The notes below the pieces were generated by a model that saw only the letters and a program-made list of their open reading frames with translations, was not told where the DNA came from and ran no database searches. From an uncultured Acidobacteriota bacterium (lineage in GTDB: Bacteria; Acidobacteriota; UBA6911; RPQK01; JAPXNP01), in the NCBI GenBank assembly GCA_963777605.1, contig CAVZRV010000007.1, forward strand, positions 896,001 to 960,000: a DNA stretch of 64,000 nt, read 5' to 3'. This document shows, one piece after another, positions 3,893 through 61,794 of the stretch. Positions within the stretch are counted from its first letter, which is position 1; every line of letters begins with the position of its first letter. Both the position numbers and the translations under genes were made by a program.

Positions 3893-5199
3893 GAAAGGTT
3901 TTGGTCAGTCTGTCAGTTGTCGGCGCAGTTCTCGTAAGCGGGTACTTTTTGTGGGGGCAGATTTCCGAGCGGGTACAACTTCTGATTACTCCCCAGAAGG
4001 GCGATCCTGTACCGACGGTGGTGGTTGAGGGTCGTTCCTATCACCTGTTGGTGCCCAGTTCCGGCGAATTGCTGGGCTTGAGTACCACACCCCTGATGAC
4101 CCCAAGGATTCGCCGAGGTTCACTGAAAGTGAGCTGGTTGGAGAAAGAAGGTCGAATCGTCCAGAAGGGGTCGCCCCTGGTCGAGTTTGACCCAACCGAG
4201 GCCCAACTCAACTTGCAGCAGAGCGAGAACGAGGTCACCTCCTACTCCTATCAGATGGACAAGAGCAGGGGAGACGCGGAAGGGGAAATGTCCGTTCTCA
4301 ACCTGGACGAAGAGGCTGCTGCCGAAGAACTGGCCTACGCCACTGGCCAGGTTCGGAAAGACGAAGAGATCTTCTCGCGCTGGGAGATTCAGGAATCACT
4401 CATGAGCGCCGCCCTTGCTGACTTTCGTAAGTCCACCCTGGGCGACAAAGTTGGCCTGCGCGACACGCTCGACAAGTCCAACCTCAAAATACTCAGCATC
4501 GACCAGCAGCGCGCCCGGGTTGAGATGGAATTGGCCCAGGACACGTTGTCTTCGTTGTCTATCGAGTCGCCCTCTTCCGGAGTCCTGATCTATCAGCGCA
4601 TGGGAATGGATCCGCTGGAAGTCGGTACCGAGGTCTGGCCTGGCCAGCCTCTCATGGAGGTTGCCCAGTTGGACAAGTTCAGGGCCAAGCTCCAGATTCC
4701 TGAGAAAGACGTGCTGGGAATTATTCCGGGCCAAAAGGTCTCGGTTGTCATCGAGGCGTTTCCAACGGAGACCTTCATGGGTGAGGTCAGTCAGGTGGCC
4801 AGGATTGCCCAGCAGGTCGACCGTGAGGACCCTCGCAAATACTTCGAATGTAATGTTCTCCTGGACGTCCCGATTGAGTTCATGGATCGGTTAAAACCGG
4901 GGATGAGTGTCAAGGCTGAGATCGAACTGGGAGAATACTCGGATGCCATCGTACTGCCGCGCAGTTCTCTGTCCAAGCAGGACGAATCGTGGGTCGTCTA
5001 TGTTTCCGAGCCGGCCGGATACCGCGAGCAGACGGTTGAAATAGTCGGCAGCGATCATGGATTCTACCTGGTCAAGGGCATCGATCCCGGCACCCAGGTC
5101 TGCCTTCGCGATCCATTTCAGAATCAGAAACTTAATCTTCCCGACTTCAACGCTCCAGCCGCACCTGCTCGGCAGGAACGCTTCGTCATCTATCGGTGA
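3889..5199 (+). CDS. Efflux periplasmic adaptor subunit (HlyD/MacA-like)
   Basis: N-terminal TM, EGRIVQKG, SPSSGVL, LKPGMSV motifs; GTGA overlap with upstream gene. Confidence 0.85.
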   Translation: MRKVLVSLSVVGAVLVSGYFLWGQISERVQLLITPQKGDPVPTVVVEGRSYHLLVPSSGELLGLSTTPLMTPRIRRGSLKVSWLEKEGRIVQKGSPLVEFDPTEAQLNLQQSENEVTSYSYQMDKSRGDAEGEMSVLNLDEEAAAEELAYATGQVRKDEEIFSRWEIQESLMSAALADFRKSTLGDKVGLRDTLDKSNLKILSIDQQRARVEMELAQDTLSSLSIESPSSGVLIYQRMGMDPLEVGTEVWPGQPLMEVAQLDKFRAKLQIPEKDVLGIIPGQKVSVVIEAFPTETFMGEVSQVARIAQQVDREDPRKYFECNVLLDVPIEFMDRLKPGMSVKAEIELGEYSDAIVLPRSSLSKQDESWVVYVSEPAGYREQTVEIVGSDHGFYLVKGIDPGTQVCLRDPFQNQKLNLPDFNAPAAPARQERFVIYR

Positions 5200-5202
5200 G
5201 TT

Positions 5203-6438
5203 ATGGCCATCTTCGAATCGATCAAAGACGCACTGCTCAACTTGGGTCGCCACAAAATGCGAACCATTCTCACCATGCTCGGCATGATCTTCGGGGTAGC
5301 AGCCGTCCTGGCGATGCTCTCTATCGGAGCGGGAGCCGAGCAGGAAGCGCTCACGGTGATCCAGAAGATGGGGCTCCGCAACATCATCATCCGGGCGAAA
5401 CAGTTTGAGCCCGATGAGTTGATGGTCATTCGTCAGGATAGCCCAGGCCTCTCTCTCAGGGACGCCGAGGCTCTTGCCTACTCGCTGCCCGAGAAGACGA
5501 TTATCTCCGGGAAAAAGGAAGTCAAGCCCTACCAGATCGCTTCGGCCTTCGGAAGAGCCGATTCGCGGGTCCTGGCGGTCACCACTTCCTACCCCGTCAC
5601 AGCCGGCCTTTCCGTCGTGGAGGGATCGAACTTCCTCCCCATTGACGAAGCGTTGCGCCATCAGGTCTGTGTTTTGGGCACGACTGCAAGGAGAAAACTG
5701 TTCGGACTGAACCCGGCCATCGGAGAGCAGATCAAGATCAACCAGGAATGGTTTACCGTAATCGGAATTCTGGCCGATCAACAACTGGGCGGCAAGGAGT
5801 TTGAAGGCGTGAAGCTGGAGAACCCCAATAACGATATCTTGATCCCCCTCCAGACCTACCTGGCCAAGTTCGAACCGGACCCGATTGCAAACCAGCTGGA
5901 TGAAATCGTCGCTCAAGTCCCCACTACCGATGGGATACGGGAACACTCCGCACTGATCTCCGGAATGATGGGAAGCATGCACAACCAGATCGACGACTTC
6001 ACGCTGATCGTCCCTGAGAAGCTCTTGGAGCAGAGCCGGCAGACTCAGCAGATCTTCAATATCGTCATGGGAGCCATCGCCTCTATTTCCCTACTGGTCG
6101 GCGGCATCGGGATCATGAACATCATGCTGGCTTCCGTCCTGGAGCGGACCAACGAAATCGGGCTTCGTCGTGCGCTCGGGGCCCGGCGCCGGGACATCAG
6201 TCGCCAGTTCATCATGGAGTCGGTAACCATCAGCGTCAGCGGCGCTCTGCTCGGAATTGCATTCGGTTTTGCAATTGCGACGCTGGTTTCCGCTTACTCG
6301 GGGTGGCCTACGATCGTCACTCCGATCTCCGTTATTCTGGGAGTAGGCGTTTCGGTTTCAGTGGGGCTGGCGTTCGGCATCTTCCCGGCTCGAAAGGCTG
6401 CCCTTGTTTCCCCGATCGAATCGCTGCGCTACGAGTAG
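5203..6438 (+). CDS. MacB/FtsX-family ABC transporter permease
   Basis: RTILTMLGMIFGVAAV, GGIGIMNIMLASVLERTNEIGLRRALGA, PARKAA..PIESLRYE. Confidence 0.92.
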   Translation: MAIFESIKDALLNLGRHKMRTILTMLGMIFGVAAVLAMLSIGAGAEQEALTVIQKMGLRNIIIRAKQFEPDELMVIRQDSPGLSLRDAEALAYSLPEKTIISGKKEVKPYQIASAFGRADSRVLAVTTSYPVTAGLSVVEGSNFLPIDEALRHQVCVLGTTARRKLFGLNPAIGEQIKINQEWFTVIGILADQQLGGKEFEGVKLENPNNDILIPLQTYLAKFEPDPIANQLDEIVAQVPTTDGIREHSALISGMMGSMHNQIDDFTLIVPEKLLEQSRQTQQIFNIVMGAIASISLLVGGIGIMNIMLASVLERTNEIGLRRALGARRRDISRQFIMESVTISVSGALLGIAFGFAIATLVSAYSGWPTIVTPISVILGVGVSVSVGLAFGIFPARKAALVSPIESLRYE

Positions 6439-6458
6439 TCACCGGGATCCGGCGGGGA

Positions 6459-7460
6459 TTACTCAACGAGAATCCGGCGACAGATGACCCCCGCCTCCCG
6501 AAACAAGTCGAATGAGGTCTCGTTGAGAGGATAGTCCTGGTTGTATACGACCTCTCTGATGCCCGCATTGATGATCATCTTGGTGCACATCAGGCAGGGC
6601 GCAAAGGTCGTGTACAGGGTGGCGTCCTTAACGCTGACGCCGTGATAGGCCGCTTGCGTGATTGCGTTTTCTTCTCCATGGGAGCAAAGACACTCGTCCA
6701 GTCGGGTTCCACTGTCCGCCAGGGAGTTGCATCGCGGGCACCCCCCCTCGTAGCAGTTTCGGGTTCCCCTGGGAGTGCCGTTGTATCCGGTTGAGACCAC
6801 CCGCTTGTCCCGCACAATCACCGCCGCCACCTTGCGCTTCACGCAGTTGCCCCGGAGGGCGGCAACCTGGGCGATTTTCATGAAGTACTCGTCCCAACTC
6901 GGCCGGTCGAAGTGAGCCATCAACTCACGGACCAGTGCCGAGACGCGTTCCTGCAACAGGCTGATCGGCCCATCGTTTTCAACCACCAGGTCTGCTGCTG
7001 CCGCGGTGCCGTCCAGGTCTTGCCCTTCCGCTCGGGAAGCCTCGGTTTCCGCCTGCTCCAGCGCCAGGAATGCCTCCATCGTGATTGGATCCTGCTCGCG
7101 CCCGCGATCTCGAATGCGTTCTAAGCGAGTCTCCGCCTTTGCTTTCACGGCAAGCAGCCGGAAGTTGGGGCGAGATCGAAATACCCGGACTTCATCGGGA
7201 TGGCGAAATGAATCAATGACGTAATTCTTGTCGGGGGCGAGACGCTGAAGAATCTTCTCGGCAAGGTATCCGGTACCATGCTCCGACCGCAGCCGCCGGC
7301 CCGTTTCGACCAGGTTCAGTCTCGTAACTTCGAGTCCTTCACGCGCCAGTTCTTCGCGAATGACATCCGAGAGAGAATAGAAATAGAAGCCTTTGATTTT
7401 GAGGAAACCGGCCACCTCACCCTTGCCCGAAGCGTTTCTTCCAGTCAAACCCAGTATCAT
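6459..7460 (-). CDS. P-loop nucleotide-kinase-like domain fused to dCMP deaminase
   Basis: N-terminal GLTGRNASGKG Walker A; C-terminal RPSWDEYF, TGYNG, HGEENAI and PCLMC zinc motifs; AGGAGG RBS. Confidence 0.88.
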   Translation of the reverse strand: MILGLTGRNASGKGEVAGFLKIKGFYFYSLSDVIREELAREGLEVTRLNLVETGRRLRSEHGTGYLAEKILQRLAPDKNYVIDSFRHPDEVRVFRSRPNFRLLAVKAKAETRLERIRDRGREQDPITMEAFLALEQAETEASRAEGQDLDGTAAAADLVVENDGPISLLQERVSALVRELMAHFDRPSWDEYFMKIAQVAALRGNCVKRKVAAVIVRDKRVVSTGYNGTPRGTRNCYEGGCPRCNSLADSGTRLDECLCSHGEENAITQAAYHGVSVKDATLYTTFAPCLMCTKMIINAGIREVVYNQDYPLNETSFDLFREAGVICRRILVE

Positions 7461-7601
7461 GGTGCCTCCTTTATAACGAGGTCTCCCTCCCTATAACAAG
7501 GGGATCGTTCGGCAGGCCTGAAATGCCTGCCCAAAGATGGCTGAGTTTGCCGCTCCGGTTGGACCTGCCCTGCCGGTTTGGTTAGTGCTATAGTCTCCCC
7601 C

Positions 7602-8771
7602 ATGCCCTTCGAATCTGTCGATTTCTTTAAGCTCGACGACCTATTAACGGATGAAGAGAAGCTGGTTCGAGACAGTGTCCGCGACTTCGTGGAGGAAAGA
7701 GTCCTGCCTTCGATCGAAGACCACTACATGGCCGGAACCTTCCCGCTCGAACTGGTCCCGGAGATGGGCGAACTGGGCTTCTTTGGAGCCAACATTGAAG
7801 GTTACGGCTGTGCCGGCCTGAATGAAATTGCCTACGGCCTGATCATGCAGGAACTTGAAAGGGCAGACAGCGGCCTGCGCAGTTTTGTCTCGGTCCAGGG
7901 CGCGCTCGTCATGTATCCGATCCATTCATTCGGCGGCGAAGACCAGAAGAACCGGTGGCTTCCCCGGCTCCAAAGTGGATCGGCGATTGGTTGTTTCGGA
8001 TTGACCGAGCCCGATTTTGGTTCCAATCCCGGCGGGATGCGCACGCGGGCACGAAGCGACGGCGACTCCTACATTCTCAACGGTAGCAAGGCCTGGATCA
8101 CCAATGGCACGCTGGCCGACGTTGCGGTCGTGTGGGCGAAATGCGATGACGGCACAGTCCGGGGATTTCTGGTTGAGAAAGGGACTCCCGGCTTCGAGTC
8201 GCGTGATTACCACAACAAGCACTCCCTGCGAGCTTCCGTGACCTCCGAACTCTTCTTCGACAGTTGCCGAATTCCCGGCGACCAGGTTCTCCCCGGAACG
8301 GGCGGGCTCAAACACGCGTTGATGTGCCTGACGCAGGCTCGTTACGGTATCGCATGGGGAGCCGTCGGATCAGCGATGGCCTGTTTTGACGTCGCCCGGC
8401 GGTGGGCTGGGGAACGCAAGCAGTTCGCCGATCGACCCATTGCATCCCACCAACTGGTGCAGGCGAAATTGGCCGAAATGCTGACCGAGATCACCAAGGC
8501 TCAGCTTCTCGTCTATCGCCTTGGACAGTTGAAAGAGGCGGGCAAGATGCGATTCGACCAGGTCTCGCTGGCTAAGCGGAACAACGTCGCGATCGCCTTG
8601 CGGATTGCCAGGACCGCCCGGGACATCCTGGGCGCCAACGGCATCCTCTCGGATTACCCCGTTTTCCGGCACATGGCCAACCTTGAGTCGGTATTCACCT
8701 ACGAGGGGACTCACGACATCCACACCCTGATCCTGGGCCAGAGCATCACCGGCATTCCCGCCTACGAATAA
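7602..8771 (+). CDS. Acyl-CoA dehydrogenase, glutaryl-CoA dehydrogenase-like
   Basis: GCFGLTEPDFGS, NGSKAWITNG, TYEGTHDIH motifs. Confidence 0.88.
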   Translation: MPFESVDFFKLDDLLTDEEKLVRDSVRDFVEERVLPSIEDHYMAGTFPLELVPEMGELGFFGANIEGYGCAGLNEIAYGLIMQELERADSGLRSFVSVQGALVMYPIHSFGGEDQKNRWLPRLQSGSAIGCFGLTEPDFGSNPGGMRTRARSDGDSYILNGSKAWITNGTLADVAVVWAKCDDGTVRGFLVEKGTPGFESRDYHNKHSLRASVTSELFFDSCRIPGDQVLPGTGGLKHALMCLTQARYGIAWGAVGSAMACFDVARRWAGERKQFADRPIASHQLVQAKLAEMLTEITKAQLLVYRLGQLKEAGKMRFDQVSLAKRNNVAIALRIARTARDILGANGILSDYPVFRHMANLESVFTYEGTHDIHTLILGQSITGIPAYE

Positions 8772-47308: not shown

Positions 47309-48202
47309 ATGAGAGTCATCGTGAACGCGACGGCGGGAAAGGGAACCGCCCGGCGCCTCCTTCCCGAGGTCCGGGGTCTCCTCGACCGTGAGTTTCCCGG
47401 GTATGAGTTGGCGACAACCGAAGGTCCCGGTCACGCAGAGGTGCTTGCCCGAGAGAGCGCCGCGCGCGGAGAGTCCCTTGTAATTGCCATGGGAGGGGAC
47501 GGAACCCTATCGGAGGTAGTCAATGGACTCGCGGGTTCAAAAACCGCCCTGGTGATCGTACCCGTTGGCACGGGGAATGATGTAGCCCGCACGTTGAAAA
47601 TCCCGGTCAACCGCCCGGTTGAGGCCCTAAAGGTAATTAGTAACGGCGCTCCCCGTTCCATCGATCTGGGCTGGGATGGTTCTCGTTACTTCGTTTCACT
47701 GCTCGGTGTGGGCTTCCCCGCTGTCGTCGCAGCCGAGGCGAATCGGCAACATCACTTTGGTGGCACCCTCGCATTCAGCTTCTCCGTTTATCGCAGAATT
47801 TCCGAGATGCGGCCTGCCAGGGTAGAAATCGTGATTGACGGAAACAGGGTTGAATTGGAATGTACTTCGATCTTGGTCCAGAATACCCCTTTCACGGGAG
47901 GTGGCCTGCGGGTGGCTCCCCACGCCAGGGTGGATGATGGTCTGTTGGACGTGGTGGTTGTGGACAATATCGGTAAGATGAATCTTCTGTGGAACTTCCC
48001 ACGGTTATACAGGGGAACGCACGTGGCCAATCCGCATTTCCATATGTTTCGTTGTCGCGACCTTGAACTCGCAACAGAACCCCCAATGGCCATGACGCTC
48101 GATGGTGATCCCTATGGTGTTTCCCCGGTGCGCGTGCAAGTCGTTCCTGCTGCCGTGACTGTGCTTGTTCAAAGGGAAAAAGAGGTGAGGCGTGAGAATT
48201 AG
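47309..48202 (+). CDS. Diacylglycerol-kinase-family lipid kinase (YegS/BmrU-like)
   Basis: VNATAG, GGDGTLSEVVNG, PVGTGND, DDGLLDV, LDGD. Confidence 0.92.
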   Translation: MRVIVNATAGKGTARRLLPEVRGLLDREFPGYELATTEGPGHAEVLARESAARGESLVIAMGGDGTLSEVVNGLAGSKTALVIVPVGTGNDVARTLKIPVNRPVEALKVISNGAPRSIDLGWDGSRYFVSLLGVGFPAVVAAEANRQHHFGGTLAFSFSVYRRISEMRPARVEIVIDGNRVELECTSILVQNTPFTGGGLRVAPHARVDDGLLDVVVVDNIGKMNLLWNFPRLYRGTHVANPHFHMFRCRDLELATEPPMAMTLDGDPYGVSPVRVQVVPAAVTVLVQREKEVRREN

Positions 48203-51200
48203 GGAGTACCTCAGTGGGAAGACATTGTTCATCACAGGTGCGACCGGATTTCTAGGCCAGCCCTTCGTCGAAAAGATCCTCTGGACAACCCCGAACGTTG
48301 AGCGCATCTATGTTCTCATCCGCCCGAAACATCATTTTGGGGGCCGGGTTTTGACTGCGCAGGAGAGGCTGGAGAAAGAACTCTACAATTCGAGTGTTTT
48401 CGAGCGTCTCCAGATGCGCTTGCAAGACCGCTTTCAGGATTTCCTGAAGGAAAAACTGATCGCCGTCTCCGGCGACATCGCCCGTCCCAACCTCGGCCTG
48501 AGTGAAAAGGACCAGGCCCGACTCCGATCCCAAGTCGATATTGTCGTCAATAGTGCAGCCGTCGTCTCCTTCGATGCTCCCATTGACCAGTCTCTTGAGC
48601 TCAACGTCTTCGGGGCCAGGCGCGTCGCGGCTTTCGCGGTCAGCTGTGAGAAGGCTGTCCTGATGCACGTCTCAACCGCGTACGTCTGTGGTGCCGCAAC
48701 CGGCTCCGTACCCGAAACCCTCCACCACGCGGCGCGTCCGGATGTCCAACATGAGCCGTTTCCAACCCGGGCTTTCACCGATCCGGAAGCCGATATCCAG
48801 GCGATTCGAGACCTGGTTGAACGCGTTCGACAAGAAGCCGAGGCTCCCGAGCTCCGTCGGAAGTTTGCCTCCGAGTTTCTCCGCACCAAGTCGAAAGGAC
48901 GGCGCCGGGTGCGTCGAGACACTGAAATAGCAAGTCTCCGAAAGCGCTGGCTGGCCAACCGCCTGGCTGAAGAAGGTATGAAGTGGGCCCGACAACGGGG
49001 TTGGAACGACACCTATACCTACACCAAGGCACTCGGCGAGCAGATGGTTTCCCGGCTTCGGGACCAGATTTCGATGGCGATTGTCCGCCCGTCGGTGATC
49101 GAAAGCAGCCTTTCGGAACCAGCGCCCGGCTGGCTTGACGGCCTGCGGATGGCGGATCCTCTGATCGTCGCGATTGGCAAAGGCCGCTTGCGCTCTCTGC
49201 CCCTCGACCCTGACGTAGCCTTAGACCTGGTTCCGGCCGACATGGTTGTCAACACCATGCTGGCAATGCTGCCCAGACTTGAGCAACCTAGTGATGAACT
49301 CCGCATCCTGCAGGTTGCCACGAGTTCAACCAATCCAATCACGCTACGTTCACTCTACGAGCTCATTTTTGAGTACTTTCGCGGCAATCCCATGCTCGAC
49401 AAGACCGGGAACCCGATTGTCCTGAAGCCCCTGCGGTTCCCTAGTCCGACGGCTTTCCGCATCCAGCATCATTTAAAAGCGGTTCCGCTCGGCACGGCGG
49501 AAAAAACCCTGGAACACCTTCCGGCGATGGACGTTACCCAAAAGGCGAAACGCCGAGTCTCGGCCACTCGCGCCGCCTACGAGAAGCTTTACTATTACGG
49601 GGAACTCTACGAACCCTACCTCAACCTGAACTGTGAATTTTCGGTGAAAAACACCCTCAGGCTGTTCGAGGAACTATCCGCCGACGAGCAAAAGGAGTTC
49701 AATTTCGATGTTGGGGCCCTGAACTGGAGACACTACATTCAGAACGTCCACATCCCTGGTGTGAAGAAGCACATCCTGAAGCTGGAGGGATCCGGGGCTT
49801 TTGAGTTGCCCGACGAAGAGCGCAGCGGAGCTATGCCCCGGACTATCCGGGAACTCCTCGAGCAAACCGCCAACCGCCTTCCCGAGAAGGTTGCACTCCA
49901 GGTCAAACGGAAGGATCAGTGGGTCCGATTCAGCTTCCGCGATATCTATCAGCGCGCGTGTGAAGTCGCGGGCCGGCTCCACGCAGCGGGCCTGCGCAAG
50001 GGTGACCGGGTTGTGCTTTTCTCGGAGAACCAGCCGGAGTGGGGAATCTCTTACCTGGGAGCTTCCTTCCTCGGCTTAATCGTTGTCCCCCTTGATTCCC
50101 AGACTTGGCATCGCGAGGTCTGGTCGGTTGCCGAGTTTACCGAAGCAAAGGCTCTCCTTATCTCTCGAAAGTGCCTGGAACGTCTTACCAAGGAAGAGCT
50201 CAAAGAAAACGAGACCGCAAGGAACCCTCGATTTCTCTTTAGTGTTGACAACCTTTGCGCGCCGCTCGGTCTCAAGGAATATCCGAACAGTTCCAACCCC
50301 AAAGTGGAACGGGTGAGCGATTCTTCGGTCCTTCCAGAACTGGACACCAACGATCCCGTTTCAATCATTTTCACAACCGGAACCGCCGTCGACCCCAAGG
50401 GAGCGGTTCACACCCACCGCTCCTTCCTCAACAACCTCCAGGGGGTCAACCACTACCTTTCGGTCGGGGAAAACGATCGCTTGCTCTCGGTCCTGCCTCT
50501 CTACCATGCCTTGGAGTTCTCTTGTGGCTTTCTGATGCCGCTGCATCGCGGGGCCAGTGTCACTTACGTCCACTCCCTGAAGCCCCGCGTTATCCTGGAG
50601 ACCATGCGGGAGACGAAGACGACCTGCATGCTCGGGGTGCCGACCTTGTACGCCCTGATCCGGGAGGACATCGAGCGAAGAATCCTGAGGACCTCCAAGT
50701 CTCCGCTCAAACAGAACGTGATGAGGACCTCGAAGCGACTCAGCGAGTCGGTAGAGGAGCGATTCGGTCACAACATCGGCCGGAGACTCTTTGCGCGAGT
50801 GCATGAGGAGTTTGGAGGACACATCCGCGTGTTCGTGAGTGGGGGTTCAGCCCTTGGCCGGAGCCTTTATCGTGACTTTAGATCGATGGGGCTTCCAATC
50901 TACGAGGGTTACGGTTTGACCGAAACTGCTCCAGTGCTCACAGTCAACCCGCTCCACAGGAGCCGCGAAGGTTCCGCCGGCAGGCCACTGCCGGGAGTCG
51001 AATTGCGACTTTTCCGACCGGATCGGGACGGCATTGGAGAGATTATCGTCCGGACTCCGAGCATCATGGAGAAATACTTCAAAAACCCGGAAGCCACCGA
51101 AGCGGTCTTTCGCGACGGGTGGTTCCACACGGGAGATCTTGGTTGGGTCGATGCGGACGGCTTCGTCTACATAACCGGACGGTGCAAGGACGTGATAGTG

Positions 51201-52527
51201 ACCGGAGCCGGGAAGAACGTCTACCCGACGGACCTCGAAGCGATCTACCGGTCGCTGGATTCGATCGACGACATCTGCGTAATCGGCATTAAGAGCGGCC
51301 TTACAGAGGACGTTCACGCAGTCATTGTTCCGGCCGGCGGAGCGGGTGCTGAAGACGGGGAAGCGCAGACGAGGAAAGAGATTCAACGGGAGATTCAGGA
51401 ACTGGCCAAGGAATTGCCGAGCTATAACCGGCTGCAGCAAATTCACATCCGGCAGGAGGCTCTCCCTTTGACTGAAGAGGGGAAACTGGATCGGGCGGCG
51501 ATCCGGAACTGGGTCACAGCTGAAGTCTCCGGCCTGCCGCGGCCCCAGGTGGCCCGGCCGGGGAAAGAAACGAGCCGCCGGGAAAAGCTTCTCGGGGAAC
51601 TGAGTCGGCTGTCCGGAGTTGACGTGAAGGAGATCGACGACGAGACCAATCTCTACATCGATCTTGGAATGGATTCACTGCTTGCGGTCGAACTGCTCCT
51701 CTTCATCGAAAGGGACCTGGGTATCAGCGTTGCCGATGAGTGGATTCCAATGTTCCAGACGGTGGGCGACGTTCTCGACGAGTTGCGCCGGCAGGGAGTG
51801 AGTACCGGGGCGACCGGGGCCCCGGAGGTCGTTCGTTCGGCCCTTTCCTATGATAAGCGTCCAACCATCGACCGGGCCCTGATGGGCGCGAGTTTCTCCA
51901 CGCTGAAGGCACTGTTTCGAAGTTACTTTCAGTTACAGATCGCGAATCCCCAGATCCTTCCGCTCGATCGCCCTTATATCGTGGCGGCAAACCACTCCAG
52001 CCACCTCGACTCGGTCGCGGTCATTTCGGCGTTGAGTCTGGCCCTCGGCGTAAGGGAGGCGCAAAGGGTTCACATCATTGGAGCACGGGATTACTTCTTC
52101 AATTCCCCACTGAAGAGTTGGCTGTTCAGCACCTGCCTGAATGTCGGTCCCGATCGAGCGAGATGAGGTTGGACTGGCCGGGTTGAGGATGGTTGGGTCG
52201 ATTCTCGGTCGCGGTGAACCGGTCGTGATCTTCCCCGAAGGCACTCGAAGCAGAACCGGCGAACTCCAGGAGTTTAAACCCGGCGTGGGGCTGATCGCGT
52301 GGGAGTACCAGGTTCCGATCGTTCCCGCATTCATCAAGGGAGCCTTTCAGGCCATGCCGGCGGGAAAAAGCCTTCCGAAACCCCACCCGATTGAAGTGCG
52401 CTTTGGTGAACTGGTCCAGATGGGGGATTATCGGGAATACGCGGCCAGCGTCTCGCGCGATGAGGTCTACCGCAAGATTGCCTCGGACCTGCGGTCAAGC
52501 ATAGTCTCCCTGACGCTCGATCAATAG
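48192..52527 (+). CDS. ElbD-like multidomain protein: fatty acyl reductase, acyl-adenylate ligase, ACP and PlsC-type acyltransferase; +1 frameshift near 52147
   Basis: TGATGFLG and YTYTK (FAR); FTTGTAVDPKG, YGLTET, FHTGDLG (adenylation); LGMDSL (ACP); NHSSHLD and, after the shift, FPEGTRS (acyltransferase). Confidence 0.85.
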
Positions 52528-55999: not shown

Positions 56000-56723
56000 A
56001 ACTTATCTCCGACATTTCTGTTGCCCGGCCGGGCAACGCCCGCTAGGAGCCTGACCAAGTTGCGAGAGTTGGATCTCGACCTCACAGGAGTGACCGCAGC
56101 ATTCCTCCAGAGTTCGGAACCGAAGATCTGGAAGTCCTTGCCTCTCCCAGAACAACTGGAGCGGCACCCTCCCCGTCGAGTTGGTCAACCTGGTGAACCG
56201 GAGCAGGTCTGTGCTCGGCCACAATGACTTCACGGGCCTGGTGATCCCGGACGAGTTCGGAAATTTGGCCAGTTTGAAGGCGCTGCAGGCGGGATCGGTG
56301 ACGGTGAGCTCGGATCAACCCATTGCCGGAGTCGTCATCTTCTCGGGCCCGACGGTCGGTGCCGCTGGCGTTGGCAACAGCCTGGAACTGCCGGAAGGAT
56401 TCGTCGCCCCCATGGAGACCAACCAGTCGAGCGGAATCAACACCGGGGTCGCAGTGATGAACCTGGAAGATGCAGACCAGACGCTGGACGCGGACTTGCT
56501 CGACAGCGCCGGCCAGAAGTTGGCGTCGGCCCAGGTATCTCTGGCAGCCCTGGGGCATGCAGCGTTGTTCGTAACCGAGATCCCGTGGAACCAACCGGTA
56601 GAGTTCAACCAGTTCGAAGGGCTCCTGAGGATTCGAAGCGAAGGCAAGACAGCGGCCACCGTAATCCAGACCCGCCCCGGCCAATTCGCCACCATGCCGG
56701 TTGCAGCGAAACCAAAGGATTGA
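56000..56723 (+). pseudogene. Remnant of leucine-rich-repeat protein joined to an intact C-terminal domain
   Basis: Frame-broken LRR units (SIPPEFG, LSQNNWSGTLPVELVNL, HNDFTG..IPDEFGNLASLKAL) running into AGSVTVSSD...NTGVAVMN...FATMPV; no start or RBS. Confidence 0.7.
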
Positions 56724-56772
56724 GATTCTTTACCTGGGGAATCAACGACTACTCATCGACGAGGAGACTCCT

Positions 56773-58687
56773 GTGAAAACGACGCTCCGAAACCTCTTTC
56801 TTGTGGCGATGGTGATTGTGGCCTCGAACATCTCCATGGGCGCCCAGAGTTACACGCTCGGTTACACCCCTGGCCGGACCTATTTCAACGCGGATGCCGG
56901 CCCGATTCGGCCTCCGTTTGAGCTGGTCAAGACGATTCCGCTGACTTCCGGCAACTTTGCCGGCTACCTGGCGGTTGCGGGGGATCGGCTGCTCGTTGAA
57001 AGCATTGAAGAAGATAACGAGGGAAGAAGCCGAGCCGTCTTCACCATGATCAACGAAACGACCGGCGAGACCCTCTGGAGCATCGCCGGCGACAAGTTCC
57101 TCTACGCAGGCGCAGAAGGCTATCCCGCGGCGATCAGTGATGACGTGGTCTTCCTGGCCACGGACCACACCACCGGCGTGCGGGCCGTCTCCGTCTTGGA
57201 CGGGACCGAACTCTGGCGCGACGATTCCGTGGGCCGGCTCAATCTCGTCTCTCCGATTGTCAGCAACAGCCTTGCCCTTTACGGAGGAGGTGATTCCCTG
57301 GTGGCGGCACGCACTCTTACGGGCGATCCCTATTGGCGAATCAATCACGATGGGGTCCGCAGCTTCGAACAAGGCATCGCCGCATCCGGCGGGCAGATTT
57401 ACCTCTTCGACGGCGGGTCGGCCGTTGCACGGAACCTGTTAACGGGAGAAGAAGTCTGGAGCGTCCCCCCAATTCAGGTGGTCGACTACCCGGCCCAGCT
57501 CCTGGTTGGAGAAGGGCGGGTTTTCGTGGCAAGCAGCGCGAATAGCTCGAAACAGAATTTGACGGCTTTGCGCGCCGATTCGGGTCAAGATTGTCTGGCA
57601 GGTCAATTGGGAGGACTGGTCCGAGACCCATGTTGCCTACGCCTACCACAGGGTGTTTGCATTTCAGCGGGGTCGGAGTGGTCTGCGGAACCGGATCGTA
57701 GCGTTGGATCCGGTGACGGGTCAGGAGCTCTGGTCTCACGAAGACGATGGTGCAGGCCTGCCGTATGGTCAGGTCGCAAACAACCTCGTCTTCTATCAAT
57801 GCTGGGATCGAACCCTGGCCCTTGATGCCTTCACCGGGAGGCTGGTCTGGAGCAAGCAGGTTGATGGGCTCACCAATTCCGTGATTGCAGACGGCCGGCT
57901 TTACCTGCTCTTCCCGGAGGAAATCCAGATCTACCAACCGGCGCATGTTCGGCAGTTGCCCCAGTTCGTGGACGGGCTGGGGGCCTCGACGCTGATCTCG
58001 ATCGTCAACCTGTCATCCGCCGCCAACTCGGGAACGCTGGAGCTCTTTGATGACGCCGGTGCCCCCCTTCCGATCGCGGTTGAGGGAGAGTCGGAGCCTG
58101 CCGCGGTGATTCCCTTCTCCCTGGCTCCGTCGGAGTCCCTGCGAATCCGCACGTCGGGCACGTCGGAAACCCTGTCCTCGGGATGGGTGCGGGTCCGCTC
58201 GGCTGAAGCGGTGAGTGCCGCGGCGACCTACCAGGTGATGGTCTCAGGCGGCCTGTATGAAGCGAGCGTCGATGCCGCCGAACCGACCGGTTCTGCGAGC
58301 CTCTCGGTGATTCGGGCGGAGGAGTTCGGGGGGCTGACCAATACCGGCCTGGCTCTGGTCAATGTATCGGACTCAGCGGCGGAAGTTGAGTTGGAATTTC
58401 GGGGGCGTGCGGCTGAGGGGCCAGCAGGGGGTACGGCCAGGAGTTTTTCTGTGGTCACAGACGGGACGTCTGTGCCACAAGCTCTCGGGGTTTTCCATGC
58501 CTCCCTGACGCTCGATCCGGGGCAACACGTGGCCCGGTTCCTGGACGAGCTTTTCGAGGAGAGCGGACAGGCCGAAGCGGAGGGAACGGTCCTGATTCGA
58601 TCCACTCGACCGATCGCCGTGACGGCGCTGCGCACGCACGACGGCCTGCCGGTATCCAGTTATCCCGTCGGATTTCCGGAGCCGTAG
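56773..58687 (+). CDS. Secreted PQQ-type beta-propeller repeat protein with C-terminal domain; +1 frameshift near 57588
   Basis: GAGGAG RBS with GTG, signal peptide; repeated A.D..TG...W blades across both frames; removing one A gives SGQIVW and joins the ORFs. Confidence 0.8.
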
Positions 58688-59147: not shown

Positions 59148-59957
59148 TCACCGTTGTTCCTTGACCGCTTTGCCGATCAATCGCCTGGTCAGGCCGGGGG
59201 CGATCCACTGGAGCCAGCGCAGGGCGCCCAGTTTTCGGGGGATGAAGAGCGTTTTTTGGCGCTGATCCAACGCGCGCAGGACCAGCGCGGAGCACTCTTC
59301 CACGGTGACCGACTCGCTGCTGTGTTTCTTGGGAGAGTGTTGGGACCGGCCCGAGCCGCCGAAGGCGTTGGCCCGCAGGCTGGTTCCGCGGATCCAGCCG
59401 GGCATCACGGTCAGGATGTGGATGGTCTCTCCGACCTCGAAGTCGAGGCTCTTGAGAAATCCGTTCAACGCATGCTTGGCTCCCGCGTAGCCGGTGTGGT
59501 TCGGGATCGCCACTTCTCCCTGCAGGGAGGAGATCGCCACGATCGATCCCCGCGCCTTCAGCAATGCGGGAAGCGCAGCGTGAACGCAGTAGACGGCGCC
59601 GAGGTAGTTGACTTCCATCAGCCTGCGAAACATCGAGAGGTCGGTGATTTCGTCGAAGCGGGCCCACATGCTGACACCGGCGCAGAGGATGAGCTGGTCG
59701 ATGCGCTGGAAATGATCCAGGGTCGCGGTCATCGCCGACCGACAGGCGTCATCGTCGGTGATGTCGGTTGGCTGGGTGATCGCGTCGGCGTCGGGGCATT
59801 TCTCGCGGATCAACCGGAGGGTCTCGGTCAGACCTTCCCGATCGCGGTCGATAAGCGAGAGACGACTTCCCCGCCCGGCCAGGTCCAGGGAAAGCTGCCG
59901 GCCCAGGCCCGAGGCCGCTCCGGTCACGACGGCAACGGAAGGGTGTTGGTCTTTCAT
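59148..59957 (-). CDS. SDR family oxidoreductase, coupled to alkyl-DHAP synthase
   Basis: TGAASGLG, VNYLG, YAGAK catalytic motif; ATGA overlap with upstream stop. Confidence 0.9.
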   Translation of the reverse strand: MKDQHPSVAVVTGAASGLGRQLSLDLAGRGSRLSLIDRDREGLTETLRLIREKCPDADAITQPTDITDDDACRSAMTATLDHFQRIDQLILCAGVSMWARFDEITDLSMFRRLMEVNYLGAVYCVHAALPALLKARGSIVAISSLQGEVAIPNHTGYAGAKHALNGFLKSLDFEVGETIHILTVMPGWIRGTSLRANAFGGSGRSQHSPKKHSSESVTVEECSALVLRALDQRQKTLFIPRKLGALRWLQWIAPGLTRRLIGKAVKEQR

Positions 59958-61717
59958 TCCGCGAACACGTTGTTTCGAATGCCGAACACGTTGGTCGGAT
60001 CGCAGCTTTGCTTGACTCCCTTGAGCAGCTCGATCGCCGGTTCCGACATGGTCTGATTTACGAACCGGGCACGCAGCTTGCCGACTCCGTGGTGATGGGA
60101 GATGGAGCCTCCGTGAGCCAGAATCGTTTCCCGCAAAGACTTCTCGATCTCGCCGAACACGACCTCGGGCCGGGCGACGCCCTTGGTATAGAGGCCGTAC
60201 ATGAAGTAGATGCAAACCCCGGTGTGGTAGAGCTGGGTCACGCGGTAGGAGACATAGAACTTTCCGGGCAGCTTGTGGAGCTTGTGCTGCTCGGCGGCGC
60301 GTTCCTCGACGGCATGGCAAACGTCGTGAATCTTTGACCAGGGAACGGAGGTCTCAAAGGTCTCGCCGATGACGTGGAACTGGGAGACGAAATCCCGGAT
60401 GTAGGCGATGGCATAGGTCAACATGTAGCCGCGTCGGCCGGCATCGGAACCGGCTGCAATCCCGTGGTATTTTGCGGCCAGCTTGTTGAGATGCGATTGC
60501 TGGTAATCGACCTCGTCCTGGGTTCCCTCCATGACAATGGTCGCAGCGACCATTTTGTCGGCGTCAAAGCCACGCACCTTGAGAACGTAGAGCTTCTTGA
60601 TCTTCTCCAGCATGGCCGCGAACCCATCGGATCGGCCCTTGAGCGCCATTCCGAACTTGAACTGAACGTTGTCGACCAGGCGGATGCTGGCAGGAATGAA
60701 GTCGGTCTTGGAAAGGGCGTGCAGGAACTCGACGCCCAGCTCGAAATTGGGGAAAACGAGTGAGCCGTAGCGGGTGACGTCCGGGCGTCGGAAAATCTTG
60801 ATGACGGCCCTGGTGATAATTCCGAGCGTGCCTTCGCTGCCGAATGTCAGCAGTTGGGGTTGAATCCCCATGGAAACGCGTGGCAATGCCGCCGAGTGTT
60901 CAACCGTTCCCAGCGGAGTCACCATGGTGACCTTTTCCACCACCTCTTCAATGTTGCCGTAGCGGTTCTTCTTCATGCCGCTGGCATTGGTGGCGATCCA
61001 GCCGCCGAGAGTGGACAGTTCGATGCTGTCCGGCTCGTGCCCGCAGATGAAGCCCTGGCCCCGCAGCTGCTCCTCGAGGTCCATTCCGCGAATCCCGGCC
61101 TGGACACAGGCGCGCATGTTCTCCTTGTCGATCCACTCGATCTGGTTCATGCGCCGCATGTCCACCGACACGATCATCCGCTGCTCGTTTTCCGGAAGGG
61201 TCAGCGACGAGCTCACGCTGGTCCCGCCGCCGTAAGGAACCAGGCAAACGTCGTGGGCATTCGCCAGTTGCACGACCGCTTCCACGTCCGCGTCGTTTTC
61301 CGGATAGAAAACGGCATCGGCACAACGTTCGAGCCGCTCGTAAAGGACCCGGTACACTTCGTCGGTCGTGGTTTGCCCGTGGCTGTGAAGGAGCCGGTCC
61401 GGATCGTCGAAAGAAAGCTGGTCGGCGTTGGTGCGGGTTTCCAGCGCCCGGCAGAAAGCCTCGTTCCGGACCGGAGGGTCGATCGGCTTGTCGGCGAGTT
61501 CCTTCTTGGTGTCTTTGAGATCCAGTGTGACGCCGAGAACGCTTTCCACGTAAGGGAGAAAGTCGTACATCCGGTAGCCGGAGAGGAGGTAGCGCTTGCC
61601 GGTTAACTCGACGCCACCGTCTTCATGAACGACAAACTCGGTGTCGGCAAATCCCCACTTGTGGCCCCACGGTATGTTGTCGAGAGATGTGTTCAAGCCT
61701 TCGCTCTTCTTTTCCAT
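59954..61717 (-). CDS. Alkyl-dihydroxyacetonephosphate synthase (AGPS)-like FAD-linked enzyme
   Basis: LTGKRY, HEPDSIELSTLGGWIATNASGMKKNRYGNIE, PASIRLVDN, GYMLTYAIAYIRD, FETSVPW, RVTQLY..G.CIYF, SHHHGVGKLR, matching AGPS motifs as I recall them. Confidence 0.9.
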   Translation of the reverse strand: MEKKSEGLNTSLDNIPWGHKWGFADTEFVVHEDGGVELTGKRYLLSGYRMYDFLPYVESVLGVTLDLKDTKKELADKPIDPPVRNEAFCRALETRTNADQLSFDDPDRLLHSHGQTTTDEVYRVLYERLERCADAVFYPENDADVEAVVQLANAHDVCLVPYGGGTSVSSSLTLPENEQRMIVSVDMRRMNQIEWIDKENMRACVQAGIRGMDLEEQLRGQGFICGHEPDSIELSTLGGWIATNASGMKKNRYGNIEEVVEKVTMVTPLGTVEHSAALPRVSMGIQPQLLTFGSEGTLGIITRAVIKIFRRPDVTRYGSLVFPNFELGVEFLHALSKTDFIPASIRLVDNVQFKFGMALKGRSDGFAAMLEKIKKLYVLKVRGFDADKMVAATIVMEGTQDEVDYQQSHLNKLAAKYHGIAAGSDAGRRGYMLTYAIAYIRDFVSQFHVIGETFETSVPWSKIHDVCHAVEERAAEQHKLHKLPGKFYVSYRVTQLYHTGVCIYFMYGLYTKGVARPEVVFGEIEKSLRETILAHGGSISHHHGVGKLRARFVNQTMSEPAIELLKGVKQSCDPTNVFGIRNNVFAE

Positions 61718-61764: not shown

Positions 61765-61794
61765 ATTCTATTGAGGGGCGCCCGAAAGAGTCAA
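61765..61794 (-). promoter_or_regulatory. Putative sigma70 promoter for AGPS-SDR (TTGACT-N18-TAGAAT)
   Basis: Near-consensus hexamers 47 nt upstream of ATG; hairpin at 61801-61830 separates it from pcm. Confidence 0.6.

Follow-up and report, generated by a model that had tools for sequence, protein, structure and literature searches.

A conserved AGPS-SDR gene pair in Acidobacteriota as a candidate module for two middle steps of ether-lipid synthesis

We found that, in a 64,000-nucleotide stretch of acidobacterial DNA (the whole stretch that was analysed, hereafter the window), a homologue of alkylglycerone-phosphate synthase (AGPS) is directly followed by a gene encoding a classical SDR, and that the pair is probably a conserved module catalyzing the two middle reactions of aerobic ether-lipid synthesis from DHAP. 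This reading draws on sequence homology, retained catalytic residues, gene order and co-occurrence, and the conservation of the promoter; the enzyme activities of both proteins, the cofactor, and the lipid product are predicted. In the proposed scheme, AGPS, a FAD enzyme, would use a fatty alcohol to displace the acyl chain from 1-acyl-DHAP and so yield 1-O-alkyl-DHAP. The presumably co-transcribed SDR would then act as the acyl/alkyl-DHAP reductase (EC 1.1.1.101), consuming NAD(P)H to reduce the keto group at sn-2 and yield 1-O-alkyl-sn-glycerol-3-phosphate. Both substrates of AGPS, fatty alcohol and acyl-DHAP, would probably come from an ElbD-like FAR-ACS-ACP-acyltransferase gene in the same window, if it is functional. 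The features concerned are as follows.

47309..48202, plus strand: DAGK_cat/YegS_C lipid kinase (Pfam), whose end overlaps the start of the ElbD-like gene
48192..52166, plus strand: ElbD-like multidomain gene with a FAR (NAD_binding_4 + Sterile), an AMP-binding domain, a PP-binding (ACP) domain, and an acyltransferase domain of which this frame holds the first half (Pfam and own-genome family searches)
52150..52527, plus strand: remaining half of that acyltransferase domain, read in a different frame, which aligns with intact orthologues
59148..59957, minus strand: classical SDR of 269 aa, candidate acyl/alkyl-DHAP reductase (Pfam adh_short, 143 bits)
59954..59957, minus strand: 4-nt ATGA in which the AGPS stop and the SDR start overlap (GAA TGA; the second frame reads ATG AAA)
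59954..61717, minus strand: AGPS homologue of 587 aa with an ATG start
61765..61794, minus strand: sigma-70-like promoter candidate, TTGACT-18 nt-TAGAAT, 77 nt upstream of the AGPS ATG and matching 10 of 12 consensus positions

The AGPS homologue comprises a PCMH-type FAD domain and a cap, as indicated by matches to Pfam FAD_binding_4 (133 bits) and FAD-oxidase_C (131 bits). Comparison with the guinea-pig AGPS structure (PDB 4bby) gave 532 bits (E 1.2e-158), with residues 17-582 of the window protein aligned to guinea-pig residues 93-656, the AGPS-specific N-terminal region included. The Dictyostelium AGPS structure 2uuu scored 295 bits, and the best non-AGPS structure, a D-lactate dehydrogenase, only 76 bits. 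Over 564 residues, the window protein and vertebrate AGPS share 44-46% identity, and the motifs LTGKRY, ASGMKKNRYGNIE, PASIRLVDNVQFKFG, GYMLTYAIAYIRD, and SHHHG are all present and aligned with the same motifs of the guinea-pig enzyme. It also keeps the equivalents of guinea-pig Arg419, Arg515, Thr568, Tyr578, and His615-617, among which we take Tyr578, the His-His-His loop 615-617, and Arg419 to be the catalytic residues of AGPS. Across 64 AGPS-type rows, the Tyr is retained in 62, the three His in 62, 61, and 61, and Arg419 in 63. The GlcD-like paralogue of the host genome, which carries a single AGPS copy, has a gap at the Tyr position and L-S-G at the His-His-His positions. PDB entries 4bca and 4bby differ from each other at exactly the Tyr578 position.

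These results bear out the sequence-only reading that the match to AGPS extends along the whole chain, beyond a generic FAD-oxidase similarity. Grouping with GlcD/D-lactate dehydrogenase-like oxidases can be excluded, given the 532 versus 76 bits, the retained Tyr and His-His-His residues, and the NCBIfam GlcD models, all of which stayed far under their cut-offs. The comparison thus supports, at the level of sequence, a genuine AGPS-type enzyme rather than a GlcD/D-LDH-like oxidase. It resembles the mammalian peroxisomal AGPS (4bby and the human enzyme) in its two FAD domains and AGPS-specific N-terminal region. Unlike the animal protein, it has no ~90-residue N-terminal extension, the alignment starting from animal residue 93, and it is bacterial, cytoplasmic, and operon-linked to an SDR. 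The AGPS homologues of related loci align from residue 1 of the window protein.

To what extent the SDR accompanies AGPS was evident from related loci and from the genomes of the order. At 20 of 30 assessable related loci, the gene that follows AGPS on the same strand encodes an orthologous SDR (44-61% identity); the SDR likewise follows AGPS directly at 16 of 16 same-order matches in the phylum sample, which partly overlap the 30-locus set. Among 76 genomes of the order, scored with presence thresholds of E <= 1e-80 for AGPS and E <= 1e-48 for the SDR orthologue, AGPS was found in 46 and the SDR orthologue in 47, with both present in 45 and neither in 28. In the three discordant genomes (G442, G423, and G431), the gene that was found is cut short or located at a contig start. 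SDR matches in the AGPS-negative genomes were at paralogue level (96 bits at most). The two genes are unlinked in the five genomes of family f105, and both are kept there. Overall, the SDR stands beside AGPS in at least three phyla.

Some observations count against the module. Nine of the 30 assessable loci have AGPS and no nearby SDR; six are labelled Chloroflexota (L018, L020, L021, L022, L025, and L026), and the others belong to Acidobacteriota (L023), Sorangium (L027), and Deinococcales (L028). In addition, no AGPS-SDR fusion or SDR domain was found among 298 proteins searched, including 150 AGPS representatives and long fusions. The linkage of the SDR to AGPS, as claimed from the sequence alone, is nevertheless conserved by both measures, adjacency and co-occurrence, and these fit a role of the SDR as an alkyl/acyl-DHAP reductase. 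Together with the gene row of a Neomarinimicrobiota locus (L017), in which FAR, acyltransferase, AGPS, and SDR are consecutive on one strand, they support functional coupling of AGPS and SDR in the same pathway. Assignment of the SDR to the next step is thus well supported by comparative genomics, as a prediction from gene content and order.

The ATGA overlap of SDR start and AGPS stop was read directly in the sequence, and both open reading frames are in place. The overlap is not kept in relatives, where the AGPS-SDR gaps, as estimated from tblastn coordinates, are ~0-130 nt. The pair had also been credited with its own TTGACT/TAGAAT promoter. The site is present and, taken singly, is no better than shuffled sequence, one such site per 4 kb being the chance level (0.6 +/- 0.7 in shuffles). 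In 6 of 31 related loci (L004, L005, L007, L013, L023, and L033), however, TTGAC-N17/18-TAGAAT recurs with diverged spacers, 54-89 nt ahead of AGPS. A search of sequencing runs listed no RNA run and, for DNA, only runs with a small share.

Which reaction the SDR catalyzes is less firmly indicated by the protein itself. Its translation shows a legible TGAASGLG (TGxxxGxG motif) and S...YAGAK (Ser-Tyr-Lys centre), and it exceeds the cut-off of NCBIfam NF004825 (251.6 against 215 bits), a model with a generic name only. The closest solved structures are likewise generic (levodione reductase, 85 bits; 11beta-HSD1, 64-66 bits), which counts against the module reading, and solved structures, the ESM Atlas, and a search of 5.8 billion proteins returned generic labels and no specific family name. 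These generic labels speak for the alternative that AGPS is rightly assigned and the SDR does another job in the same pathway, reducing a fatty aldehyde to the fatty alcohol required by AGPS or working on just the acyl-DHAP branch toward ordinary lysophosphatidate. Co-occurrence and adjacency, too, indicate a shared pathway and not the step. We consider this unlikely. At L017, an acyltransferase and a complete FAR of the alcohol-forming type (NAD_binding_4 + Sterile) already stand by AGPS, so keto reduction is the only step left there without an enzyme, and the ElbD-like gene of the window also has a FAR with a Sterile domain.

The ElbD-like gene lies 7 kb from the AGPS-SDR pair on the opposite strand, and its orthologues occur within the 6-kb flanks of AGPS-SDR at eight related loci. 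All domains of the ElbD type (FAR, adenylation, carrier, and acyltransferase) are found in the window, although the acyltransferase domain is split between two frames by a 1-nt frameshift at ~52147-52152. The orthologues in L030, L031, and L011 are intact (1446-1456 aa). The frameshift puts the supply of acyl-DHAP in doubt, unless it is an assembly error or another acyltransferase serves; the host genome has six PF01553 acyltransferase matches, two of which are the halves of the ElbD-like gene. The adjoining DAGK_cat/YegS_C kinase may belong to this lipid module, and only one related locus (L011) has it beside the ElbD-like gene. In a distant acidobacterial genus, AGPS stands between an AraC gene and an acyltransferase gene, and in L076 an SDR that is not orthologous comes next.

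Bacterial agps homologues, acidobacterial ones included, have already been published. Sections of PMC9131029 describe the Myxococcus xanthus operon MXAN_1676-1675-1674, which encodes AGPS (~42% identical to human AGPS), a FAR-acyltransferase, and an NAD-dependent epimerase-family protein, and M. xanthus reviews list FAR, acyltransferase, and AGPS as the only candidates, with this epimerase-family protein left unassigned. The window resembles this operon in grouping a bacterial AGPS homologue with FAR and acyltransferase functions and with a Rossmann protein of the NAD(P) type, and it also carries an ElbD-like FAR-ACS-ACP-AT gene, comparable to M. xanthus ElbD; it differs from the M. xanthus operon in that the partner directly behind AGPS is a classical SDR and FAR/AT reside in the separate ElbD-like gene, and from the Sorangium locus, where no such SDR is nearby. 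According to portions of a sponge preprint (bioRxiv 10.64898/2026.06.23.733905) and of PMC11868695, agps and elbD homologues share Acidobacteriota, Poribacteria, and Latescibacterota MAGs. The main-text portions of these two sources make no mention of an SDR/dehydrogenase partner, the word "dehydrogenase" occurring zero times in those of the preprint. In the literature searched, the AGPS-SDR module was not found as a candidate bacterial alkyl-DHAP reductase.

The eukaryotic enzymes known for alkyl/acyl-DHAP reduction (Ayr1, DHRS7B, and Dictyostelium c2/c3) are all classical SDRs, as stated in part of PMC13256971. The window SDR shares with Ayr1, DHRS7B (PexRAP), DHRS7, and Dictyostelium c2/c3 the classical SDR fold and the proposed step after AGPS (sections of PMC13256971 and PMC13200781), and differs in its operon linkage to AGPS, a bacterial feature. 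It is conceivable, but quite unlikely in our estimate, that the AGPS-linked SDR is both the missing bacterial acyl/alkyl-DHAP reductase and of common ancestry with eukaryotic Ayr1/DHRS7B. If so, all four "peroxisomal" steps (FAR, DHAP acyltransferase, AGPS, and reductase) would constitute one bacterial operon, as in L017, and this block could have passed between bacteria and early eukaryotes together.

A further explanation is that the AGPS homologue makes no ether lipids in these bacteria, the FAD enzyme acting on another substrate and the pair belonging to an unrelated redox pathway. No biochemically characterised bacterial AGPS was found in the literature searched, disruption of the AGPS homologue in M. 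xanthus had a minor effect on ether lipids as reported in part of PMC9131029 (a point against the module as well), and ether lipids were not detected in Pontiella, which has elbD homologues, according to a portion of PMC11868695. Nevertheless, the AGPS-specific catalytic residues are all kept, and AGPS is repeatedly clustered or fused with FAR and DHAP/G3P-type acyltransferases (L017, L070-L072, and the AT-AGPS and FAR-AT-AGPS fusions P0122 and P0136). We therefore hold this explanation to be very unlikely, and favor the AGPS-SDR pair as an ether-lipid module.

The sequence-only reading had also suggested that this clade bears on the origin of eukaryotic AGPS, which our phylogeny did not sustain. 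A FastTree of 110 rows and a quick tree, whose root was a very long GlcD-like outgroup, served as guides only and are superseded by a careful tree. In the latter, the window protein falls in a 19-row Acidobacteriota/Fidelibacterota subclade (support 100/100) nested within a 31-row clade (98/99), which takes in every named bacterium of the main type, with the named eukaryotes all outside it. Few of the 50%-identity representatives could be given a name, most being metagenome proteins, among them those of tree group D (P0134, P0148, P0151, and others) and of the long fusion group. Constraining the 13 eukaryote-type rows to one clade was not rejected (p-AU 0.43). That the acidobacterial clade is specially near animal AGPS, as donor or recipient lineage of the eukaryotic enzyme, is extremely improbable despite the identity to vertebrate AGPS noted above, because the guinea-pig isoform matches Sorangium equally well (44%, 502 bits, against 44%, 485 bits for the window) and other eukaryotes are nearer to it (Pharyngomonas, 616 bits; a nematode, 560 bits). 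The Sorangium value and that of MXAN_1676 indicate that the animal-like resemblance is a general trait of bacterial AGPS, and the question of the origin of eukaryotic AGPS is not advanced by the AGPS-SDR finding.

The reductase step of bacterial DHAP-based ether-lipid synthesis has no assigned enzyme in the literature searched. An SDR that is gained or lost with AGPS across an order, and that also lies beside it in other phyla, is a concrete candidate for this reductase and is directly testable. Bacterial alkyl ether lipids bear on environmental lipid biomarkers, and the AGPS-SDR pair would sharpen their genome-based prediction beyond what agps or elbD matches allow.

We located the alkylglycerone-phosphate synthase (AGPS) and short-chain reductase (SDR) genes in a 6.7-Mb, 53-contig source genome; the closest named relatives of the window proteins are from Acidobacteriota MAGs. 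The locus is laid out as follows:

61794..61765, minus strand: TTGACT-18 nt-TAGAAT, 77 nt upstream of the AGPS ATG
59954..61717, minus strand: AGPS ORF, 587 aa, ATG start, Pfam FAD_binding_4 and FAD-oxidase_C
59148..59957, minus strand: SDR ORF, 269 aa, Pfam adh_short
Upstream of AGPS, same strand: pcm (PCMT) and rnhB (RNase HII)
Downstream of the SDR, convergent: BamB-like PQQ-repeat gene

The AGPS TGA and the SDR ATG indeed share the ATGA overlap claimed in the sequence-only reading, and this overlap is particular to the source genome, the gaps in related loci being an estimated ~0-130 nt. Two overlapping plus-strand ORFs (56701..57825 and 57653..58687, spanning 56701-58687) each match the BamB-like PQQ_2 repeat family and may be one frameshift-split gene.

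A search of all PDB sequences matched the 587-aa protein to guinea-pig peroxisomal AGPS with an E value of 1.2e-158 (532 bits; residues 17-582 against guinea-pig 93-656) and to Dictyostelium AGPS with 295 bits, whereas the best non-AGPS structure, D-lactate dehydrogenase, scored 76 bits, and all NCBIfam GlcD models scored far under their cut-offs. Identity to six vertebrate AGPS was 43.6-45.6% over ~564 residues (BLASTP), and each motif listed in the sequence-only reading was found, aligned with its guinea-pig counterpart. The protein keeps the equivalents of Arg419, Arg515, Thr568, Tyr578 and His615-617, whose catalytic roles we take from structural papers on AGPS; PDB entries 4bca and 4bby differ at precisely the Tyr578-equivalent position. 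In a 64-row AGPS alignment, 62 rows retain the Tyr, and the HHH positions are conserved in 62, 61 and 61 rows; the GlcD-like paralogue of the source genome has a gap at the Tyr position and L-S-G at the HHH positions. AGPS is single-copy in this genome, which also holds two distant FAD-oxidase paralogues, and IMG labels such proteins 'alkyldihydroxyacetonephosphate synthase'. Taken together, these sequence comparisons support the earlier assignment of the protein as AGPS and not as a GlcD- or D-lactate dehydrogenase-like oxidase.

Taken alone, the TTGACT/TAGAAT site proposed as the pair's promoter is no better than chance (1 found versus 0.6 ± 0.7 in shuffles), but it recurs: of the 31 loci examined, 6 (L004, L005, L007, L013, L023 and L033) carry TTGAC-N17/18-TAGAAT at a distance of 54-89 nt upstream of AGPS. 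In the upstream alignment of the three closest loci (mean column identity 52%), TCAATAGAATC is invariant and TTGAC stands at a constant 17-18-nt distance. Such conservation speaks for a genuine promoter among the nearer relatives; a search for RNA data turned up none.

TGAASGLG and a Ser/Tyr/Lys centre identify the SDR as a classical one. Its NCBIfam family, NF004825, is the generic 'SDR family oxidoreductase', among solved structures it comes closest to levodione reductase, at 85 bits, with 11beta-HSD1 at 64-66 bits, and public names are generic as well. These give no specific family assignment; the case for a reductase was built on comparative genomics.

Scanning species-representative genomes yielded 36 related loci, 32 with AGPS and four (L035, L036, L038 and L039) with weak matches to other FAD oxidases, which were excluded from the AGPS count; L013 and L029 stop at the AGPS gene, so that 30 AGPS loci were assessable. 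In 20 of these 30, AGPS is followed immediately, on the same strand, by an SDR orthologue (44-61% identity, at least 189 bits). In L014, from a 'Caldora' MAG, the SDR is a different one, 0.8 kb past AGPS with a Uma2 endonuclease gene (7760-8389) in between. No SDR was found in the AGPS flank of nine loci (L018, L020, L021, L022, L023, L025, L026, L027 from Sorangium and L028 from Deinococcales). At L018 (Caldilineales), an IS605 OrfB/TnpB-type gene (5521-6636) sits between AGPS and a fusion of adenylation (ACS) and fatty acyl reductase (FAR) domains. The genes that directly follow AGPS in L014 and L018 are thus of a mobile or selfish kind. In a preliminary FastTree of AGPS (110 rows), two of the 20 SDR-linked loci stand out: the 'Thermoguttaceae' locus L010 is nearly identical to Acidobacteriota L012, and the 'Anaerolineae' locus L019 to Neomarinimicrobiota L015, which points to mis-binning of the contigs or to transfer in the very recent past. 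With these labels doubtful, the sound phyla for the linkage are Acidobacteriota, Neomarinimicrobiota/Fidelibacterota and Gemmatimonadota; Latescibacterota is present, by name, among the SDR orthologues.

An even phylum sample contained AGPS (E <= 1e-80) in 22 of 401 genomes, mostly from the window's own order, and the SDR adjoins AGPS in 16 of 16 same-order matches, whose genomes overlap in part with those of that scan. Across the 76 genomes of this order, 46 carry AGPS and 47 carry the SDR orthologue (E <= 1e-48); 45 combine the two genes and 28 lack both. The three discordances are explained by fragmented assemblies: the SDR is located at the extreme start of a contig in G442 and G423, and the AGPS match in G431 (74% complete) is partial, covering residues 16-435. 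SDR matches in AGPS-negative genomes reach at most 96 bits, paralogue level only. The two genes are adjacent in 39 of the 45 two-gene genomes, unassessable in one (G434) and unlinked in five, all of family f105 (G444-G448), the sole non-adjacent family, which has nevertheless retained both; in G444 they lie 175 kb apart on one contig. Genus g10 has AGPS in 2 of 7 genomes and g11 in 1 of 3, with the SDR in exactly those genomes, which shows joint gain or loss. No statistic was placed on these counts because kin are not independent. The SDR linkage, whose lack of conservation would have counted against the sequence-only reading, is thus conserved.

The eukaryotic step after AGPS is always carried out by classical SDRs, namely Ayr1, DHRS7B and Dictyostelium c2/c3 (PMC13256971). 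Because of this and of the pathway context, we consider the AGPS-linked SDR somewhat more probably than otherwise an acyl/alkyl-DHAP reductase, which would act directly after AGPS. Sequence and comparative evidence back the proposed partnership, with the SDR as a candidate reductase.

The most telling locus is L017 of Neomarinimicrobiota, a tight four-gene row on one strand throughout:

3497-5188: FAR
5175-5951, same strand as FAR: acyltransferase
5938-7713, same strand as FAR: AGPS
7781-8620, same strand as FAR: SDR

The eukaryotic peroxisomal pathway uses FAR1, GNPAT, AGPS and an acyl/alkyl-DHAP reductase, and this row is its counterpart. A distant acidobacterial genus (L075 in G328, L076 in G301), with AGPS at 47-48% identity, has the order epimerase-family protein, AraC regulator, AGPS and acyltransferase; L076 continues with a non-orthologous classical SDR, an ORF that has no assignment, and then FAD synthetase (RibF) and an ABC1 kinase, and L075 lacks an SDR after the acyltransferase. 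The proximity of FAD synthetase to the FAD enzyme AGPS in L076 is notable. Two fusions, acyltransferase-AGPS in a gammaproteobacterial MAG (P0122) and ACBP-aminotransferase (DegT)-FAR-acyltransferase-AGPS (P0136, 2271 aa), point the same way. Metagenomic proteins of 1300-2700 aa with a terminal AGPS domain include P0136, P0137, P0141 and P0147, among others.

The strongest FAR domain of the source genome also falls within the window, in a gene resembling ElbD, the myxobacterial multidomain ether-lipid enzyme:

47309..48202, plus strand: DAGK_cat/YegS_C lipid kinase, its end reaching 11 nt into the ElbD-like ORF
48192..52166, plus strand: ElbD-like gene with a FAR (NAD_binding_4 and Sterile), AMP-binding and PP-binding domains, then the N-terminal half of an acyltransferase domain
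52150..52527, plus strand: second half of the acyltransferase, in another frame

In its domain order the 48192..52166 ORF matches myxobacterial ElbD. The L030, L031 and L011 orthologues run unbroken for 1446-1456 aa, so the window gene (48192-52527) carries a 1-nt frameshift, at ~52147-52152 between the NHxxxxD and FPEGTR motifs of the acyltransferase domain, which may be an assembly error or real (a pseudogene). ElbD-like genes occur in the 6-kb flanks of AGPS-SDR in eight related loci, convergent in L004, L007, L010, L011, L012 and L037 and same-strand upstream in L030 and L031. The kinase, which might phosphorylate a glycerolipid such as alkylglycerol or diacylglycerol, accompanies the ElbD-like gene in one related locus only (L011).

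The suggestion that this clade may bear on the origin of eukaryotic AGPS was not supported. Against guinea-pig AGPS isoform P0315, the window protein scored 485 bits versus 502 for Sorangium AGPS, with Neomarinimicrobiota and other Acidobacteriota at 484-498, Pharyngomonas at 616 and a nematode at 560; by these scores, likeness to animal AGPS is not special to the window's clade. MXAN_1676 of M. xanthus is reportedly ~42% identical to human AGPS (PMC9131029). In an IQ-TREE phylogeny (LG+C20+F+G4 PMSF, 47 rows, 583 columns; 18 of 65 rows, mostly long or redundant and including a very long GlcD outgroup, left out), the window protein falls in a 19-row subclade (support 100/100) with Poribacteria, Gemmatimonadota, Neomarinimicrobiota, Chloroflexota and a gammaproteobacterial fusion, nested among bacteria in a 31-row clade (98/99) with Sorangium, Deinococcales and two unnamed groups. 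The named eukaryotes (vertebrates, Globodera, Pharyngomonas, Lagenidium, Chromera, Vitrella and Eimeria) are all outside this clade, in a poorly supported branching order. Forcing the 13 eukaryote-type rows together, a group defined after the tree was seen, cost 0.91 log-likelihood units (p-AU 0.43). With the eukaryotes outside and this grouping cheap, the results fit a simple bacteria/eukaryote split whose direction is unreadable. A second AGPS-like group, farther removed at 31-33% identity to the window protein (e.g. the Sulfotelmatobacter cluster P0226), also occurs in Acidobacteriota.

The bacterial ether-lipid gene set is already known: PMC11868695 and PMC13159169 report agps homologues in many bacterial phyla and in some Acidobacteria, and a 2026 preprint (10.64898/2026.06.23.733905) reports that MAGs of Acidobacteriota, Poribacteria and Latescibacterota carry elbD and agps together. 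The word 'dehydrogenase' occurs 0 times in that preprint's main text, and in the literature searched, whose supplements may hold more, no mention of an SDR partner or a bacterial acyl/alkyl-DHAP reductase was found. The AGPS and SDR-partner proposals are thus supported by sequence and comparative evidence and the evolutionary one is not, and the SDR is a soundly based candidate for the missing bacterial reductase step, one that can be put to the test.
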